From a virus, in the IMG/VR virus record IMGVR_UViG_3300042197_000370: a stretch of 64,000 nt of DNA, one strand, 5' to 3'. The notes under the pieces are model-generated. The model was not told where the DNA came from. It worked only from the letters and a program-made list of their open reading frames with translations, and searched no databases. The position numbers and the translations under genes are program-made. Shown here in pieces: positions 6,409-54,241 of the stretch (the stretch's first letter is position 1; each line of letters opens with the position of its first letter).

Positions 6409-6694
6409 CGGGGTATACAGTTCTACCCGAGTTCATAAAGACAACCGTAAACTTGTCTGTTTTGAATTGTGCATTAAGTTTACGGCAAAGATTTCTTGCA
6501 TGACCCGGATTGCTGAAACTGGTCTTTTTATATTTTGGTGCCGCTTCGTTGGCTAGATAATGCTGGCTCTTTAGGTTAATAGGCTGGTCATCATAGAACA
6601 CGGCCCAAATGCCACTAGCCTCTACGATCTGGTCGCATTTGTATGTGGCTTTATCCACATGTTCTAAAATAATTTTTGGTTGTGTTCTACTCAC
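6395..6694 (-). CDS. Conserved large-phage hypothetical protein (KYKKTSFSNPGHA type)
   Basis: 99 aa ORF with a 4-nt start/stop overlap upstream. Confidence 0.8.
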   Translation of the reverse strand: MSRTQPKIILEHVDKATYKCDQIVEASGIWAVFYDDQPINLKSQHYLANEAAPKYKKTSFSNPGHARNLCRKLNAQFKTDKFTVVFMNSGRTVYPDDRS

Positions 6695-6888
6695 TTAAAT
6701 GATCCGCCTTTAATTTGAATATCTATAACTGGTTCAGGTTTAGATTTTTCCTTTTCATACAAATCAGACAGTAATTTAGCAATGTCATCACGTAGACCTC
6801 TTGCTTCATCTATTGGAATAACAATGTCTTTGGTCTTTTTACTCTCCGCTACTGACATTTTATCCAAGAAACGTCTTACATGTATCAT
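6691..6888 (-). CDS. Hypothetical protein
   Basis: 65 aa ORF coupled on both sides; ATAAATA 4 nt before the ATG. Confidence 0.7.
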   Translation of the reverse strand: MIHVRRFLDKMSVAESKKTKDIVIPIDEARGLRDDIAKLLSDLYEKEKSKPEPVIDIQIKGGSFK

Positions 6889-7346
6889 AAGATATTTATC
6901 TGATTTTTTGCTTCATCCTCAGTTTTATAAGGTCCTCTATACGGGTAACGCTGGATAAAGATGTATTTTGGACAAAAACTGACTTGTTCCGTACCATTTT
7001 GGTTCAAAATGTACCATCCGGCTGCATGATAACATTTACTCTTTTTAGACTTGGTAAATAGATGCAGTTTTCGCTTAATGTCGAAAATGCTATTATATGT
7101 CTTTGAAGTAGTAGGAAACTCTGGGTAAGGCAATTCAGCCTTAGTCTTATTAGACTTCATGGGCTGAAAACGTATGTTTACCCTACGCTGAATATCCTGA
7201 GTATTGTTAAAATGTGTCAAGTTTCCGTTAAGTTTAACTTCGTATCCTGACCCATCTGCAATAACATTTCCTACTTTTCTGTCTCCGTCTGTTACGACCC
7301 AATATTGATTCTTAATGATTGGTTTAGCAATTAATGTAGTTGACAT
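6885..7346 (-). CDS. Hypothetical phage protein
   Basis: 153 aa ORF with GGAGGG SD. Confidence 0.8.
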   Translation of the reverse strand: MSTTLIAKPIIKNQYWVVTDGDRKVGNVIADGSGYEVKLNGNLTHFNNTQDIQRRVNIRFQPMKSNKTKAELPYPEFPTTSKTYNSIFDIKRKLHLFTKSKKSKCYHAAGWYILNQNGTEQVSFCPKYIFIQRYPYRGPYKTEDEAKNQINIL

Positions 7347-7360
7347 TTGCCCTCCGTTGT

Positions 7361-7822
7361 TTATTTAGTGTCATTTTCTTTGGTAAGTTCGGCTACCAAC
7401 AGAAAATGGTCAAATGCTTTTTTGACTGCTGGATTGGTCATAAGTTTTTCAGCCTCTTGCGTCAAAGCCCTGACCGCAGCCTCAGCCGCATCCCTAGAAG
7501 CCGGACGAATAAGTGGATAATCATCCTGCTTGAAACTCTCAGCAAGTTCACGCCACAGTTTTTGTTGATGCTCTGTGATAGGTTGTTTTTGCGGTTTAAG
7601 GTCTAGTGCCTTTCTAATAGCATCAGACACCGCATCCTCGGCTACCCGACCAGCGGCAATCATGGCCGCATAGTTAGGGTCAATGTTATAGTGAGTAGAC
7701 TTGCCACCGGGATAACTCATAACAAGATGAGTACCCTTTGTAAAGGAATCTAGGAAGTCGCTGTCATATTCACTGACAGGCTTGTACCGTCGTCCTACTT
7801 TTTCATAATAAATCTTTTTCAT
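7361..7822 (-). CDS. Hypothetical phage protein
   Basis: 153 aa ORF, ATGA overlap. Confidence 0.8.
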   Translation of the reverse strand: MKKIYYEKVGRRYKPVSEYDSDFLDSFTKGTHLVMSYPGGKSTHYNIDPNYAAMIAAGRVAEDAVSDAIRKALDLKPQKQPITEHQQKLWRELAESFKQDDYPLIRPASRDAAEAAVRALTQEAEKLMTNPAVKKAFDHFLLVAELTKENDTK

Positions 7823-8100
7823 TTCTTTAACAGTTTGAACAAATCGTGTTTATGTTTTGGTGACCAGTATTTTCCTTCTTTACCGCAATCCCCAGAATAT
7901 CCTCGTTCCGAATAGCAATTCTTATAATCTGCCGGCACCGTGGTACCGCCGGTCACTGGATTAAAGTCTACTACACTTTTCTTACCTGTTCTCTTGCACT
8001 TATACCATTGCTGTCCGGGAGTTAACAGTTTGCTAGGATAATCATACCAAGGAATGAATGCATGGGTGCAATCCTTACATAACAGATTGTTATCATTCAT
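7819..8100 (-). CDS. Small Cys-rich protein (CxxC...C...C...C)
   Basis: Restarted at MNDNNLLCKDC (ATGA overlap). Confidence 0.7.
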   Translation of the reverse strand: MNDNNLLCKDCTHAFIPWYDYPSKLLTPGQQWYKCKRTGKKSVVDFNPVTGGTTVPADYKNCYSERGYSGDCGKEGKYWSPKHKHDLFKLLKK

Positions 8101-8321
8101 TCTTGAAATGCCTCCCAAAACAATTCATTATCCTTGACATTTGCTATGGGTTTGAGCCAACCTCTATCAATACAATCTAGTAAAATTGATTTATATTCCC
8201 TAGGACATTTATCACTAATTTCAAACCCTGCTCTAGGTGCCATAACTAATCCATCGATAATATGAAACTTTGGGTCACCTGATTTAATGGTTCGAATAGA
8301 TGTTTGGGTAACCTTAAACAT
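8097..8321 (-). CDS. Hypothetical protein
   Basis: 74 aa ORF overlapping the rnh stop. Confidence 0.7.
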   Translation of the reverse strand: MFKVTQTSIRTIKSGDPKFHIIDGLVMAPRAGFEISDKCPREYKSILLDCIDRGWLKPIANVKDNELFWEAFQE

Positions 8322-9318
8322 GTGCTAACTCACCTATATAAGGATTGTTCAACCACTTAGCATAACTATCAGCCTGATCGCTAATCTTCTGCAATTCGTA
8401 CTTACCACAAAACTTCATGAAGTGAACACCAACTTGCGGCGTAGTAGTTGTACGCACCCCGTTACGAATAGCATCATCTACCTTAACTTTAACGTCATCG
8501 GGTTGAGCAGTCAAGTCAATCAATGTACGGTTGCGCTCATAATCATCACGAACACGGCGCTCAACACCGTCATGATCAACCCAACGTTGCAACATCATGT
8601 TGTTCCAGTTAAAGCCTTGCTTAGTACGGTCAGCAAAGGCTTCGACAAGACCAACCTTGTTCTTGCTACCTTTCTCACGCACACCCGGGTAAGCACTGAA
8701 CACATTGTCAGTTGCATCACCACGCATACATTTTTTGAATAGCAAGTACTGTGGGTCCTCAAGTAGTTTATGTTCCTTAGTCTTTTTGTCAACTACAGGC
8801 TTACCGTTATCTTTGAAATATCCCTGTAGTGTAATGAGTTCGTTGGAGACTCCGTTATACTGGAACACATTTTCAGCAATAAGCTGAACGTAATCAGTAT
8901 CAGAACTAATAATGTAATGCGTGTCATTTGGATGTAGATGTATAAAACGTGCAATTAAATCGTCTGCCTCAGCGTTGGGTTCACGTAATACAGACACATT
9001 AGTTTTCTCACGCAAAAATGTTATAAACATTTCATACGTTTCCCAAAACATTTTGTTTTCTTCGATCTCTGCCTCAGTCATAGCAGATTCATCAAGTTTG
9101 CGATTAGCCTTGTACGGCTTATAGAAATCTTTACGCCAACTGCGACCCTCAAGACAGAACACAACGTGATCAATCTTATGGTTACGCACAATCTGATTGA
9201 CACTGGCAAGTGTCAGATGCAATGCCATACCAATCTTTTCCCATGTATCACTATTGCGACTGGCAACGTGACGGGCACGGAAGAAAGTATTAGCAGTATC
9301 GATAAGTGCGTAATTCAT
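8314..9318 (-). CDS. rnh: 5'-3' exonuclease / T4-type RNase H (FEN1/PIN fold)
   Basis: LIDTANTFFR, SWRKDFYKPYKANR, EADDLIA, SSDTDYVQL and GDATDNV motifs. Confidence 0.9.
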   Translation of the reverse strand: MNYALIDTANTFFRARHVASRNSDTWEKIGMALHLTLASVNQIVRNHKIDHVVFCLEGRSWRKDFYKPYKANRKLDESAMTEAEIEENKMFWETYEMFITFLREKTNVSVLREPNAEADDLIARFIHLHPNDTHYIISSDTDYVQLIAENVFQYNGVSNELITLQGYFKDNGKPVVDKKTKEHKLLEDPQYLLFKKCMRGDATDNVFSAYPGVREKGSKNKVGLVEAFADRTKQGFNWNNMMLQRWVDHDGVERRVRDDYERNRTLIDLTAQPDDVKVKVDDAIRNGVRTTTTPQVGVHFMKFCGKYELQKISDQADSYAKWLNNPYIGELAHV

Positions 9319-9351
9319 GTAAACTCGCTGGTAAGTTGATAATATACGTAT

Positions 9352-9380
9352 ATTATATGCAAAATAGTATTTTAAATCAA
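9352..9380 (-). promoter_or_regulatory. Sigma70-type promoter for rnh
   Basis: TTGATT (9380-9375), 17 nt, TATAAT (9357-9352). Confidence 0.7.
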
Positions 9381-9406
9381 CACATTTTGGGTAAATTTTT
9401 ACCCAT

Positions 9407-10612
9407 TTATCTGATTCTATAGATGAGGTGCATGTTCCTTTGCTCCCTCAACAGGTTATAATTATGGTCTACTATAGGTTGCAGTTTGGCTTGCCAATCT
9501 AAAAACTCACTATCCGTTTTGGAACATAGTCGTTCCAGTTCATTACATATGGCTTGAAGTCGTTCTTCATCATTTTCTATGTCATCGTAACTTTCATTAA
9601 TGTATGGATGAAACGTCTTATACCCGGCACGTTGTAATACTTTTAGTGATCCGGTGTAGCCTGCTAATATGAATGGCAACTTAGTAGCAATAAATTTATA
9701 AATCTTTTCTGTGAAAAAGTAACAGTCTAGTGACACACCACTTAATGATGGATTTGTAAGATATATGTTACCGGGGTCTTTGTCATGGAAGAATTTACTT
9801 TCAGTTACAATACCAAAATAACTGTCCTCATAAAAATGTGTGCTATCTACTTTGTTCATTGTAGATATGACTTCATTGTAGTTTAGATTTTCTAAATCTA
9901 AATTTAATGGGAACAGTTGCCAATTATCTTCTAATATCTTTTGTGTCTCTAAGTATGTATTTGGTAGATAGTGGTGTAGTCCTTTGATAACTGAATCAGT
10001 GTCAAAATCTAAATTTACTGTTTTGCTGTTCAGATAACAAGACACATATCCTTTATCTAGTAGTCCTCTTTTTATAATTTGTGCTACGATATGTAATCGT
10101 TCCCATTTAGTGTGCCTATTAAGTGATAAAAACTTTTTGCTTTTTACCTTAGGTTCGTTGTTTATAGTTCCCGAATTAGGATTCCAATGTATATAATTAT
10201 TTGCAGAGGTAACTTCTAAGTTGTTTTTAAATAGGCAGTTTATTTCTACCCAATTAAATCTATTACAATGATATTTGTAAAACGTTACATTTGCAGGATC
10301 TGGTGCACAGCCTAAAGCCAAATAAAGATTTCCAGGATGATATTTGGTATTATCTATTTCAGTTAATTCCGAAATGATTTTATTACATACATCAATTTGA
10401 TGATACGTTACACCTTCGCTCGTTATGTCAAAACAAACTTTGTTTTTGTTTTTATTAACACAATGCGAATGTATGTGTTTAGCAATCTCTATTGCATTGT
10501 CTTTATCAATGGTTGTAAATTTGTTTGTGTTTACAACAGTAATATCAAGACCCAAAGACTTATATAAATCGCTATTAGGATTTTCATCTAATGGGGGTAA
10601 CGGTATATCCAT
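9407..10612 (-). CDS. Putative glycosyltransferase-like protein, paralog 1 of 3 (IVxE...TEK..K/RP...PFI family)
   Basis: C-terminal block shared with 37687 and 55508; resembles the GT10-type nucleotide-sugar-binding motif. Confidence 0.6.
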   Translation of the reverse strand: MDIPLPPLDENPNSDLYKSLGLDITVVNTNKFTTIDKDNAIEIAKHIHSHCVNKNKNKVCFDITSEGVTYHQIDVCNKIISELTEIDNTKYHPGNLYLALGCAPDPANVTFYKYHCNRFNWVEINCLFKNNLEVTSANNYIHWNPNSGTINNEPKVKSKKFLSLNRHTKWERLHIVAQIIKRGLLDKGYVSCYLNSKTVNLDFDTDSVIKGLHHYLPNTYLETQKILEDNWQLFPLNLDLENLNYNEVISTMNKVDSTHFYEDSYFGIVTESKFFHDKDPGNIYLTNPSLSGVSLDCYFFTEKIYKFIATKLPFILAGYTGSLKVLQRAGYKTFHPYINESYDDIENDEERLQAICNELERLCSKTDSEFLDWQAKLQPIVDHNYNLLREQRNMHLIYRIR

Positions 10613-12087: not shown

Positions 12088-12167
12088 AGTAAACCAAAGT
12101 TGATAAATATATAATCAAGTGTACAATATATATGTAGTTATTGTCAACCTATTTGGAACCCAAAGTC

Positions 12168-13742
12168 ATGAATATAATAGAATTAATGGAAGGCGTTGAG
12201 CCAAAATTACCCGGTGCACCCAAAGGCATCAAAATTATGACCCCGCAACAGTTTGTGGCTGATGCAGGGGATGAGGAAGTGGATGAGGACCTAAGCCGTA
12301 GGGGATTTTTAGGGGCATTGGGTAAAGCAGGATTAGCAGCCGCAGGTGCTGGTCTAGCAGGTAAAGCACAGGCAAGAGTGTCCCCTGGACAAGATGATCG
12401 AGGTTTTGGTAATAACCAAACAAATACTAGTAAAGATTTGGGTGACGGTTTTGAATTAGCAACGGTAGATATTGCAGGGTTCACAGTAAAGGCAGTGTTG
12501 GATACACAAACTAATACGTATTATACATTGAATCGAAAGCCAACTACCGGAGGTGCTATTTTTAGTTCACCTGCAAAATATGTTTTTGTAAGAGACGGCA
12601 AAGTAAACACATCAATGAGTATAGGTCCTGCTACAAAACAAGCAATGCAAAAGGCAGGGCTTATTCAAGGTGTAGATGAGGCAACTAAACTTGCAGCACC
12701 TACTAGACCAATTGGCGATCCAGAGTTAACAGACTATTTGGATCGTATCCGTAATAGAGAAAAGAATAAGACAGACAAATATAAACTTCCATATATTCAT
12801 CGTAGTAGTGTAGTAAGTTACTATAATGAAGAAGGTAAAAAATACAATACTGACGCTATTAAAAAAGCACTAGCAGAAAGACCAAAAGCACTTCTTAAAA
12901 AGAATGAGAAGATGAAGCATAGTGACGGTGAAGAAGAACAATTTTTCAACGTTGGCTTTGCCGCATTAGTTGGTATAGCATTAGATGAGAATACAAACGA
13001 ATTGATTATTGTTAATACTTGCCCAGGTGCAGGTAGTTGTAAAGTAGATTGCTTTGCTATGAAGGGCGGTAAGGTACAGTTCCAAGGTCCATGGTTAAGT
13101 GATGGTAGAATTCTTACATATCTACTCAACGATCCAAATGGATTTTTTGAGCAATTAAAAGCAGAGATTAGTAAAGAAGTTTCTAAGAGCAAGGGCAAAT
13201 ATAAAGTAAGCATTCGCTGGCATGATGCTGGCGACTTCTTTAGCCCAGAGTATGCAAGTATGGCATTTAAGTTAGCAGACTCATTACCAAACGTTGACTT
13301 CTATGCATATACCAAAGTTGCTGACGTAGCATTGGGTAATAAGCCAAAGAACTTTATGATTAACTGGAGTGAAGGAGCAAGTAGTTCACAAGAGAAAAAA
13401 GTAAAGGGTGCTGATAGTGACTTATCAAAGACAAAGAACAGTAGAATTGTTCCTAGCGAATTGTTCTATGATTTGTTAGTAAAGGACGAAAAGAAGAACT
13501 TAGTTAAGGGTGCGGAAGGCCAATGGCAAGTAATACCTGACAAGTTACCTGAACTAAAACAAAGACTAGCCAAAGAATATGGATTAAGCGGTAATAGCAT
13601 ATTAAGTTATGATGAGTGGGAAAGTAAAGTAAAGGGCAAAGATAAGTCACCATTGAAGTACAATGTTATCATTGCTCCCGGTGAACCTGACTTAACTGCT
13701 AAAGACGCAGGCGTATTGAGTACGTTATTGTTGAAACACTAA
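12168..13742 (+). CDS. Modular protein: internal Tat-like signal module plus C-terminal gp88-like (radical-SAM-related) domain
   Basis: Restarted at MNIIELME; DLSRRGFLG...AQA module between two VDE sites; TCPGAGSCKVDCFA, RWHDAGDFFS and FYAYTK motifs. Confidence 0.75.
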   Translation: MNIIELMEGVEPKLPGAPKGIKIMTPQQFVADAGDEEVDEDLSRRGFLGALGKAGLAAAGAGLAGKAQARVSPGQDDRGFGNNQTNTSKDLGDGFELATVDIAGFTVKAVLDTQTNTYYTLNRKPTTGGAIFSSPAKYVFVRDGKVNTSMSIGPATKQAMQKAGLIQGVDEATKLAAPTRPIGDPELTDYLDRIRNREKNKTDKYKLPYIHRSSVVSYYNEEGKKYNTDAIKKALAERPKALLKKNEKMKHSDGEEEQFFNVGFAALVGIALDENTNELIIVNTCPGAGSCKVDCFAMKGGKVQFQGPWLSDGRILTYLLNDPNGFFEQLKAEISKEVSKSKGKYKVSIRWHDAGDFFSPEYASMAFKLADSLPNVDFYAYTKVADVALGNKPKNFMINWSEGASSSQEKKVKGADSDLSKTKNSRIVPSELFYDLLVKDEKKNLVKGAEGQWQVIPDKLPELKQRLAKEYGLSGNSILSYDEWESKVKGKDKSPLKYNVIIAPGEPDLTAKDAGVLSTLLLKH

Positions 13743-14593
13743 TGAGAGCAACTGAATTTCTTAAGGAGTCTGAAGTTGATGAAATGGCGTTAGCCAAATA
13801 TCAACCAATGGGTGACTTTACTAAGCCAGGACCATTTAGGGGAGTAGATAAGAAATTAGTGCCTCATCCTAAAAATCAGTTGAAGGCAGAAAAGTTCTTT
13901 GAAAAAACTCCATATGATTTTAGATTATTCTTTAGCAATATATCAGGTACAGGTCGCTATAGTGAATATGGTCCTATGGATCCAAAGAACGTAGAAATAA
14001 TATTTGGTGATGCCGCTAAAGATATTATAGATGGACATGATGATGCTATTACTGTAGTATTCGTAGGTAATAAAGGTGATAGCAAAGTTATGTTAACACC
14101 ATGGATGATGGCGCATCGTTTTGGACATGCTATACAAGCAGGAGTGCGCGGTAAGAATCAATGGAGTGCTTGGACAGAAGCCGAAAATCATTTTTTCAAT
14201 GCAGTTAACAATCTATTAAATGAATATTACGGTAAGATCGGTAAGCCAGGTGGTAATTTAAAATGGGAACTTACCCCTGAATACAACGCATTATTCAATG
14301 CTATTGGAACACAGCGTAGTAGCCGTAGTAATGAAATTAGAAGACCTTACGAATTTTTGTATGAACTATTTGCACAGTATTTAGGTACTGGTAATGTCAC
14401 ACTTAAGCCTTTCCCAACTAACTTAAGTTATGGTCGTAAAGTATGGGGAAATCCCACACGTTATATGAATATCAAGCCCGAGTTCCGTGACGAAAACGAA
14501 CGAAAGAATGCTGCCGAAACACTAGCACGTGATATGGAAATGATGTTTGATGACGTACTAAGCAGTAGCGTCGGCAAGATATTCGTTATGTAA
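13742..14593 (+). CDS. Putative internal head protein with capsid-targeting-like N-terminus
   Basis: MRATEFLKESEVDE start; HRFGH zincin-like motif lacking the catalytic Glu. Confidence 0.7.
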   Translation: MRATEFLKESEVDEMALAKYQPMGDFTKPGPFRGVDKKLVPHPKNQLKAEKFFEKTPYDFRLFFSNISGTGRYSEYGPMDPKNVEIIFGDAAKDIIDGHDDAITVVFVGNKGDSKVMLTPWMMAHRFGHAIQAGVRGKNQWSAWTEAENHFFNAVNNLLNEYYGKIGKPGGNLKWELTPEYNALFNAIGTQRSSRSNEIRRPYEFLYELFAQYLGTGNVTLKPFPTNLSYGRKVWGNPTRYMNIKPEFRDENERKNAAETLARDMEMMFDDVLSSSVGKIFVM

Positions 14594-52018: not shown

Positions 52019-54241
52019 TTATTTCCCTGCAGGTTTAATATCATACCAACGCCAGCCATCGCCGTCGTTACGATTGACCGCTTCAGTTTCACTTATACCC
52101 TGTGCTATGCCTGAGGGTTTTACTTTATACTTACGATAACTTTGTCCTGCGTTACCACCTTGACCCATTCCACCTGCGTATGCAGTATCTTCATTCTTCT
52201 TGCCACCAGTGCCCCAATTACTTGCGCCTTTTTTACGGCACTTGACTAATGCACCACTAGCATAAGCACTAGGCCATACTTTATAACGGCTCTTAACTTT
52301 GTAGTAGCAGGCGTCTTTCTTTTCGTTCATCATTTCTGCTTCATACATAGCACCACCGCATTTAGGACATTGTTGATGACCTTCTTCTACGCTTTCTTTT
52401 GGCACACAATTAGGGACCATTTTACCGCCCTTACTTTTCATACCAACTTGCTTATGTGTATCCCAGCACTTTTCGTCTAATTGTTCTTCCGCTACGTTTT
52501 TGGCTATTTTATTCAATTCATAGTGAACTTTATCACCGGCGTCAGCCCTAAATGCTCTGAATCCTAATTCCTTAGCATAACGCTGAACTAACCTATCATA
52601 TAAATTAGCACGACTTTGTGTTTTTTGTCCTGGTTCAACTTCTTTGCTGGCTGAGAAGATTACTCTTTTGGGTTTGTACTTCTTAATAAATGTTTGAATA
52701 GCACTTAATACTGTAGCAAATATTCTATGTGCATCACCTTCTCCTGTGACTTCTTGACTGTCATTTCTATAAAATTCAACACTCCAGGCTTCTTCACCTT
52801 CTTCATTTGCGTCTAGGTTAAACATGATACTTAGGTCATCACCATTGGGTATTTCAGCGTAGGCTGTTACCTCATCCATGTCACCAGGATACCATTTTAG
52901 TTTGTAGGGTTGGTCAAAGGATTCCTCTAAATCTTGTGCCTCCGCCGTATCTTGCTGTTTTGTAAATACAAGATCACCATCGTATTTTCTATCAACATAG
53001 CCTGCTTCTATAGCATCATCTTCCCACATGATATCACCGATCATGTTTTCTAAAAATGACCAGTAATCATCGTCTCCGATAAACTCCATGTTCATACCGT
53101 AATAAGTATTATTTTTTGTATCAAAACCATTTCGCATAGTAGAGAATTCTTTAGCATTATTGCCTGTAGTTGAAGATAGTTTATATATAGCATGTTTATG
53201 ACTATCATCCTGAGGATTTCCTGTAGCAAGAAACATTGGGCTTTGGCGTGTTATGCCATTTTGATCTATTCTTATTTCGTAAATTCCGTCACGGTCATTA
53301 TTACCAATTACTGATGCTACAATTTTATTTGTTCTAAGATTTTTGAAAACCAAATCAACATCATCTATTCCTTTTGATCGTGGTCCAGTAGCGTAAACAA
53401 TTCCTTCAGTATTGTTTTCATTTAATGAATTTTTAGGTTTTTTATGATGTTTCTTCATGTTTATAGCAATAGCAGCCTGTTGAGCAGGGTTCATAGCTTC
53501 ATTTGATTTCTTTTTTGTAGCTACATTCTTTGCTGGGCCACTACGCTCTGGATTAGGATCTTCTCTACGCTTACGTGCTGCCGCGCTTGCACGACCCTTC
53601 TTTCCTAGACTGTGGGCTTTACTCTGTGGTAAGCATTTTGGCTTACCCTCGCTGTCATCACCCCTTGCACAATCACCGCGAATCTTGCCATCAGGACCAA
53701 AACGAACCCACTTCTCTTTAAACCATTTGCGTAGATTCTCATCTAGTATTTCATCATCGTCCCAACGTGATTGTTGTAATGCTTCTTCAAATACTTCATC
53801 TAATCCGTATACTGCTGATTCTAATTGATTCTTTGCATTATACACATCATCAATTGCTGATTCAAGTGAATCTTTATCAATATTGAACTTTTCTGCAAGC
53901 ATTTGAATTTGTACAATAATATCTGTAGCAGTATCATCATACTTGATTTGTTTGGTTATCTGTCTGGCTTTTTGTAGTGCCATTTCTAATTCTGCTTGTC
54001 TATCTGCACCTTCTTCAAGTCCACCTGAATATACTGGCTTCCCTGCTTTACGTGCAGCCAATCTTTTTTGTAGTTCAGGATTAACATCAGATTTTGGCGC
54101 CGGCGCAACCGGTGATGCTGGAGCCTTAGGTTCTGCAATAGGTTTATCAAAGGATGTGATTTGTCCCGCCTTACGTGCAGCCAAACGCTTTTGTAGATCG
54201 GGATTTAATTCTGATATCAAACCTTTTATGATAGAACTCAT
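52019..54241 (-). CDS. Large modular (polyprotein-like) putative internal head protein
   Basis: About ten short modules each preceded by LEE/LDE/SNE/LNE/VEE/MNE/KNE. Confidence 0.8.
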   Translation of the reverse strand: MSSIIKGLISELNPDLQKRLAARKAGQITSFDKPIAEPKAPASPVAPAPKSDVNPELQKRLAARKAGKPVYSGGLEEGADRQAELEMALQKARQITKQIKYDDTATDIIVQIQMLAEKFNIDKDSLESAIDDVYNAKNQLESAVYGLDEVFEEALQQSRWDDDEILDENLRKWFKEKWVRFGPDGKIRGDCARGDDSEGKPKCLPQSKAHSLGKKGRASAAARKRREDPNPERSGPAKNVATKKKSNEAMNPAQQAAIAINMKKHHKKPKNSLNENNTEGIVYATGPRSKGIDDVDLVFKNLRTNKIVASVIGNNDRDGIYEIRIDQNGITRQSPMFLATGNPQDDSHKHAIYKLSSTTGNNAKEFSTMRNGFDTKNNTYYGMNMEFIGDDDYWSFLENMIGDIMWEDDAIEAGYVDRKYDGDLVFTKQQDTAEAQDLEESFDQPYKLKWYPGDMDEVTAYAEIPNGDDLSIMFNLDANEEGEEAWSVEFYRNDSQEVTGEGDAHRIFATVLSAIQTFIKKYKPKRVIFSASKEVEPGQKTQSRANLYDRLVQRYAKELGFRAFRADAGDKVHYELNKIAKNVAEEQLDEKCWDTHKQVGMKSKGGKMVPNCVPKESVEEGHQQCPKCGGAMYEAEMMNEKKDACYYKVKSRYKVWPSAYASGALVKCRKKGASNWGTGGKKNEDTAYAGGMGQGGNAGQSYRKYKVKPSGIAQGISETEAVNRNDGDGWRWYDIKPAGK

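Follow-up and report, generated by a model that had tools for sequence, protein, structure and literature searches.

We describe a gene of 524 codons in a 64,000-nucleotide stretch of viral DNA (IMG/VR record IMGVR_UViG_3300042197_000370; the whole stretch is called the window below) whose product carries a signal peptide of the twin-arginine translocation (Tat) type 40 residues into the chain, directly behind a junction that ends in Glu and at the start of a module that closely related genes lack or replace. The gene belongs to a giant T4-like lake phage and encodes a modular protein that is probably packaged in the head. We propose, with a confidence that falls a little short of an even balance, that cleavage by the phage head protease makes this cargo, once packaged and delivered to the next host, a substrate of the Tat system. 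The gene is organized as follows, with all coordinates given as positions in the window.

12168-13742, + strand: target open reading frame, with ATG at 12168, stop codon at 13740-13742, 524 residues
12168-12191, + strand: leader resembling a capsid-targeting sequence (CTS), residues 1-8, ending in L-M-E
12192-12287, + strand: conserved 32-residue peptide, P-K-L-P-G-A-P ... I-M-T-P-Q-Q-F, which ends at the first junction
12279-12287, + strand: first junction, V38-D39-E40
12288-12374, + strand: Tat-type signal, residues 41-69, with the arginine pair at 44-45, the hydrophobic core (h-region) at 54-65 and K-A-Q-A at 66-69
12375-12680, + strand: passenger, residues 70-171, whose last residues are the second junction, G-V-D-E (12669-12680)
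12288-12680, + strand: whole swappable module (signal plus passenger), 393 nucleotides, 131 residues, flanked by GTGGATGAG and GTAGATGAG
12681-13739, + strand: conserved GP88 domain, residues 172-524, with an invariant C-x5-C-x3-C

The window copy of the signal combines an RRxFL motif (S-R-R-G-F-L, residues 43-48), a 12-residue uncharged h-region of Ala, Gly and Leu, and a c-region with a basic residue and an A-x-A site (K66-A-Q-A69). The NCBIfam Tat model TIGR01409 aligns with residues 42-69 from end to end (profile positions 1-29) at 16.0 bits, and a six-frame scan of the window found no other RRxF motif followed by a hydrophobic segment in a credible gene. A preliminary description of this DNA, made from the letters alone, had placed EEVDE about 40 residues into the protein, ahead of SRRxFL, an h-region and AxA, and had placed a passenger of about 100 residues before a second GVDE; both placements are borne out by the coordinates above. 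The same description called the motif textbook, which is apt for the relatives, 8 of 10 of which pass TIGR01409, and slightly generous for the window copy, because its Lys is displaced by five residues, to position 53 in place of directly after F-L, and its score lies just under the curated cut-off of 16.7 bits. The signal begins at residue 41 and would occupy the N-terminal location usual for Tat signals only after the proposed cleavage. Other genes in the window carry ordinary N-terminal Sec and lipoprotein signals, and therefore these phages use host export in the usual manner for newly made proteins.

The relatives provide a clearer picture of the Tat head. There it takes the full form R-R-G-F-L-K/R-G, the matches to TIGR01409 lie at internal positions between 35 and 425, and three sequences (L048, L052 and P0159) also pass the gathering score of Pfam TAT_signal. 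When 1.8 billion proteins were searched with the module, 40 cluster representatives were obtained, all of them in long phage proteins or directly behind the leader. A Tat-type head precedes the passenger in 19 of these 40, a Sec-like head (G-W-K ... A-H-A) in 2, and no head in the remaining 19. The head starts at residues 35 to 711 of the reading frame, never at the true N-terminus, and no free-standing secreted form of the module was found among the 40 cluster representatives or, at the DNA level, among 38 viral loci. The arginine pair and the Phe are invariant in all 19 Tat-type heads, and 17 of the 19 retain the layout of an h-region followed by a basic, A-x-A-containing c-region. Mean identity among the 19 is 85% over the 12-residue block around the arginine pair, 55% over the passenger and 32% over the residues before the junction. 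The arginine pair follows a hydrophobic-x-Glu motif by 2-4 residues in 14 of 14 cases, the head often bringing its own canonical L-x-E, and 31 of the 42 uncharged hydrophobic 15-mers found in module regions have a junction no more than 12 residues away, compared with 24% of random positions. The Tat head is thus real, under selection and specific in its position.

The head is also not tied to one passenger, as it recurs in relatives before at least six unrelated ones. In L132 (G003, nucleotides 6432-9485), a 687-residue polyprotein, it stands right after P-V-D-E and before a Peptidase_M48 domain with the H-E-x-x-H motif; this internal head was the single match in a six-frame TIGR01409 search of the genomes of five relatives. 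Two further GP88-family genes (L052, 2338-4059, and L048, 2173-4059) have Tat heads on other passengers at residues 110-130, and that of L052 ends in the lipobox V-A-G-C, the signature of a Tat-exported lipoprotein. In the sequences that we examined for this purpose, namely the window and the five relatives' genomes, Tat-type signals were found only inside long modular proteins. None of the five relatives has a match to the TatA/B/E family. A second head class is Sec-like, with G-W-K/L, an Ala/Gly/Leu stretch and A-H-A or A-Q-A, and directly follows V-D-E or V-A-E on several passengers, including that of the window (P0016, P0019, P0045, P0097, P0133, P0152, L041 and L122). There are three hydrophobic head classes in all, the last of them Gly-zipper-like, located after EVDE and devoid of a signal-peptidase site.

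The protein that hosts these modules belongs to a large family. Pfam PF17338 (GP88) matches residues 243-410 at 85.6 bits against a gathering score of 24.4, and searches of Pfam and NCBIfam found GP88 as the only Pfam domain in the 524 residues and no peptidase domain. The GP88 part has more than 1400 metagenomic homologues in a search of 5.8 billion proteins. What the homologues share is an N-terminal leader, M-x-x-x-E-L-x-E-G, the conserved 32-residue peptide, which is kept in nearly all of them, and the C-terminal 353 residues. Between leader and GP88, a comparison of more than 200 sequences revealed anything from no module to more than seven, all unrelated to one another, so that the total length ranges from 364 to 1098 residues. 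It was noted separately that in L050 and P0116 the conserved peptide (L-P-G-A-x-x-G-I-x-I-M-x-P-x-x-F, window 12192-12275) directly precedes GP88, after other modules; because it adjoins GP88 and not the N-terminus in these two, the peptide seems to belong functionally to GP88.

Close relatives reveal how cleanly the modules move. The preliminary description had suggested a check of whether homologs gain or lose the whole VDE-to-VDE module, and they do: in DNA alignments, L002 and L004, whose C-terminal parts are 96-98% identical to that of the window protein, lack exactly nucleotides 12288-12680, and in L001 and L003 (96-99% identical) the slot is filled by an unrelated module rich in Lys and Gly. 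The module is thus a clean polymorphism of presence, absence or replacement between genes that encode protein flanks of 96-99% identity.

The T4 prohead protease recognizes L/I-x-E, and the borders of the modules have the general form of such sites. Among 176 distinct GP88-family members, the residue before the GP88 boundary (P1) is Glu in 163 as aligned, the remainder looking by eye like slips in pattern register; P3 is Val, Leu, Ile or Met in 159, P2 shows no preference, and Ala stands at P1' in 164. Of the 176 members, 154 have a leader in which residues 6-8 read L-x-E, and the leader of the window protein, which ends in L-M-E at residue 8, likewise has the hydrophobic-x-Glu expected of a T4-type CTS. 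Read as sequence, the borders therefore appear as sites of the T4 prohead-protease type, hydrophobic-x-Glu. In T4, the CTS consists of the first 10 residues of IPIII, with residues 4 and 7 involved in targeting and residues 8 and 10 in processing (PMC9026906). Prohead proteases of this type cleave after Glu within three-residue motifs whose P3 is phage-specific, the motif being A-x-E in SPN3US and S/A/G-x-E in phiKZ (PMC5694885; PMC10052503). The possibility that the junction serves as a ribosome-binding site was considered and rejected, as a start codon is out of reach in most modules.

A protease of the required family is present in the lineage. The PolB proteins of four related records (G001, G002, G003 and G005) are 80-88% identical to that of the window, and G001-G003 are 335-524 kb long and 95-100% complete. 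Peptidase_S77, scaffold and Gp23 genes lie in T4 order in G001-G004, that is, in four of the five related records; G004, which is among the protease-positive records, is a 63%-complete fragment and has no PolB match to the window. The capsid protein of the lineage contains L-A-E|S at the position where T4 gp23 is cut. The record of G003 (524,565 bases) has two PolB copies, 83% and 81% identical to that of the window, near opposite ends and on opposite strands, and it may be an assembly artefact or hold a large inverted duplication.

A separate feature of the linkers was observed at the DNA level. G-V-A-E, the commonest linker, is encoded by a near-invariant GGT GTG GCG GAA in 46 distinct module contexts, all in related loci and none in the window (for example, L016, L022, L039, L040, L049 and L072). 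Its Val is encoded by GTG in 43 of the 46, although GTG makes up 10% of all Val codons, and its Ala by GCG in 44 of the 46, although GCG makes up 6% of all Ala codons. This conservation at synonymous sites points to a role of the DNA itself, most simply as a crossover site for the shuffling of modules.

From these features we infer packaging, cleavage at each site, ejection into the cytoplasm, export and a function for the passenger, along the following lines, which amount to the simplest interpretation and match what the preliminary description had proposed. The gene would encode a head-cargo polyprotein whose 8-residue leader brings the product into the prohead core, where the gp21-type prohead protease would cut after Glu at residue 8, at VDE (residue 40) and at GVDE (residue 171). 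By these cuts the enzyme-like GP88 domain, the conserved peptide and a single exchangeable module would be freed from one another. The cleaved module, a small β-rich domain with D41 as its new N-terminus, would then begin with a Tat signal peptide. Ejected with the DNA into the cytoplasm of the next host, it would refold, be recognized by TatBC and be exported, and signal peptidase would cleave after A-Q-A (residue 69), so that a ready-made phage protein would reach the periplasm ahead of all phage gene expression. The proposed export of the module fits the ability of Tat, a host exporter, to take finished, folded proteins. The loading and delivery steps have a parallel in T4, which packages, processes and delivers foreign proteins fused to a CTS in active form into E. 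coli (PMC9026906; PMC3012670). More broadly, and somewhat more tentatively than for the window gene itself, we propose that T4-like lake jumbo phages use a two-step address code, in which a CTS leader would load the polyprotein, the head protease would unmask Tat or Sec signals, injected modules would be exported to the periplasm within moments, and modules would be shuffled at linkers conserved at synonymous sites.

Several observations weigh against export from the next host's cytoplasm after head-protease cleavage. The window copy of the signal falls below the TIGR01409 cut-off (16.0 versus 16.7 bits), and Pfam TAT_signal (PF10518) does not report the window protein at E≤0.01. As the arginine pair comes as early as residue 44, the Tat system might treat even the uncut protein as a precursor, one whose n-region is long. 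The 19 passenger relatives that have no signal include some directly behind the leader, so the passenger can be useful without the periplasm. As to the cuts, the work of Black, Showe and Steven from 1994 is said to give Leu or Ile as the canonical P3 of T4, from which the Val found here differs. Since G-V-A-E is conserved at synonymous sites, the conservation of junctions may partly serve DNA recombination and not proteolysis. Finally, tblastn searches of the 64 kb of the window with the relatives' protease, scaffold and capsid proteins found no head genes, and hence the gp21-type protease is known only from the relatives. Altogether, the window copy is a somewhat degenerate, off-consensus instance with an uninformative passenger.

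It is possible, if rather unlikely, that the module is a relic, derived from a once free-standing gene for a secreted protein that was fused in frame and whose signal is inert in the window copy. The residue two before the arginine pair is Met in about half of the heads and otherwise Ile, Leu or Val, one nucleotide step from ATG, a pattern that resembles a decayed start codon; moreover, the window head departs from the family consensus and scores below the cut-offs, and the head is missing from half of the passenger relatives, whether through loss or from the outset. Against such an origin stand the lack of any free-standing form among the cluster representatives and viral loci described above, the fact that the block around the arginine pair is the best-conserved part of the module, the retention of the h-region and A-x-A in the window, and the recurrence of heads on unrelated passengers.

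A second explanation, which we regard as unlikely, is that the signal does work, but within the producing cell: either the uncut precursor would be exported as a loop behind its 40-residue extension, or modules cut in the prohead would leak out like scaffold fragments and be exported late, coupling a periplasmic activity to head maturation. The arginine pair of the window protein comes as early as residue 44, some natural Tat n-regions are 25-30 residues long, the thylakoid Tat system tolerates N-terminal extensions, and passengers elsewhere include an envelope-type M48 peptidase. However, the relatives' heads lie 110-710 residues deep, behind folded modules, and with heads buried as deeply as 710 residues, this explanation is unlikely to hold generally. 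In addition, the 40-residue leader is kept in the many members that lack a signal, the uncut chain could be exported only together with the 353-residue GP88 part, which is signal-less in most homologues, and the internal proteins of T4, at 8-20 kDa, are retained in the head.

It is improbable that the hydrophobic heads are instead membrane-seeking segments of ejected proteins, which might hold the cargo at the inner membrane or open that membrane at the site of DNA entry. The ejection proteins of other phages are membrane-active, and the Gly-zipper-like head class would suit such a role. Nevertheless, the invariant arginine pair with F-L-K, the A-x-A sites, the lipobox and the agreement with curated Tat models are traits that TatC, signal peptidase and Lgt recognize and a lipid bilayer does not.

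We consider it very improbable that internal translation initiation yields an ordinary Tat precursor, the outcome that the preliminary description had named as a refutation, and as a general explanation we reject it: the window has only a weak candidate in GTG (V38, 12279), 7 nucleotides after GGGGA, its head has no nearby ATG, the codon two before the arginine pair is CTA in the window and TTA, CTC or ATT in other copies, and the purine-rich run encodes the acidic linker found also in signal-less members. In one relative, L092, GGAGG stands 5 nucleotides before an in-frame ATG two codons ahead of the arginine pair, and for this reason some copies could be read both ways; since no stop codon follows the passenger, GP88 would remain part of the product.

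The core of the passenger (approximately residues 90-165) is modelled by AlphaFold2 as six strands and one helix with predicted local distance difference test (pLDDT) values above 90. A Foldseek search of the PDB with this fold gave no match with E<0.4, the best VIA-align match (Z 4.9, a polo-box-like sheet plus helix) was within noise, and the protein atlas gave no usable match. The roles in superinfection exclusion or envelope repair offered in the preliminary description thus find no support, the passenger having no recognizable fold or family and half of its relatives no signal. For the GP88 domain, the structural model reached a pLDDT of 71, Foldseek returned nothing below E 0.04, and a sequence search of the PDB gave no match. 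The best VIA match had Z 7.2, and partial β/α barrels, including radical-SAM enzymes, were found at Z of about 6, which is not decisive. The domain has many invariant His, Asp and Trp positions besides C-x5-C-x3-C, and the language-model neighbours of the protein are all GP88 clusters. The search for near relatives in cultured phages found none, only gp56 of Streptomyces phage Gilgamesh matching the GP88 domain, at 30% identity; in that phage the homologue lies between the genes for the major capsid protein and the head-to-tail adaptor. A literature search found no paper on PF17338 or on 'GP88' in the phage sense.

Other genes in the window carry leaders similar to that of the target, among them the translationally coupled gene downstream, which has a CTS-like leader ending in L-K-E followed by S-E-V-D-E and no family match in Pfam, PHROGs or NCBIfam. 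The elements that border the target gene are the following.

12101-12107, + strand: ATAAATA, a candidate T4-late-promoter-like heptamer read from the sequence, about 60 nucleotides upstream of the ATG
13742-14593, + strand: downstream gene, 283 residues, whose start overlaps the stop of the target gene (TAATG at 13739-13744)

A second linker-delimited polyprotein of 740 residues is encoded at 52019-54241 on the - strand. It shares at least two modules, namely a Trp/Lys-rich Cys module after L-D-E and a K-D-A-C-Y-Y-K... module, as well as a DUF6934-like part, with the N-terminal regions of GP88-family proteins of other phages.

The proposed system bears parallels with several known ones. The T4 proteins IPI, IPII, IPIII and Alt likewise have a short leader ending in hydrophobic-x-Glu and highly variable cargo behind a conserved leader, together with a protease of the gp21 family, which on the present side is found in the lineage (PMC3012670; PMC9026906). 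T4 cargo, however, consists of single proteins that act in the cytoplasm, whereas here several exchangeable modules lie in one reading frame between repeated sites, the chain is closed by GP88, and some modules begin with export signals. In the giant phages phiKZ, 201phi2-1 and SPN3US, a gp21 homologue also processes many head proteins, inner-body and ejection proteins among them, by cleaving behind the Glu of a three-residue motif, and a propeptide holds several such sites (PMC5694885; PMC10052503); their P3 is Ala, Ser or Gly in contrast to Val, Leu, Ile or Met here, and no export signals have been reported behind the sites. Polyvalent proteins (Iyer et al. 2017) are similarly multi-domain, delivered with the invading DNA, composed of shuffled effectors and thought to be cut (PMC5512222). 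They carry their own peptidase domains and cytoplasmic effector enzymes, unlike the protein studied here, for which we propose cleavage in trans at the linkers; with one Pfam domain and no peptidase, this protein resembles them in function and is not a member of the group. None of the terms 'signal peptide', 'twin-arginine' and 'periplasm' appears in the text of the polyvalent-protein paper (PMC5512222).

The closest precedent for a hidden signal comes from thylakoids. The premise of the preliminary description that Tat signals work only at the N-terminus of a protein is too strict, since proteins of the thylakoid lumen have a Tat signal behind a transit peptide and a stromal protease exposes it (PMC10267391). 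The principle of a hidden Tat signal therefore has a precedent, though not in phages. Bipartite presequences for the thylakoid lumen follow the same two-step logic, in which a protease removes the first peptide and thereby exposes a Tat or Sec signal (PMC10267391). They differ in that they serve import into a eukaryotic organelle, have no homology to the phage proteins and involve no capsid step, and thus the analogy is one of logic only. Among the results listed by full-text literature searches, no paper linked twin-arginine signals with a prohead protease, capsid targeting or internal proteins.

Injected phage proteins are known to act in the cytoplasm. If the route proposed here is correct, pre-made virion cargo would be sent on to the periplasm and the earliest phase of infection would extend to a further compartment, with possible consequences for envelope defences, superinfection and the remodelling of the cell wall or membrane. 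It would represent the first counterpart in bacterial viruses of the bipartite presequences of organelles, and it would explain why Tat-type signals in these phages were found only inside long modular proteins. Additionally, T4-type packaging vectors might on this basis be used to bring proteins of choice into the periplasm, and the grammar of modules and linkers offers a starting point for a catalogue of the hundreds of unknown cargo domains that uncultured giant phages carry.

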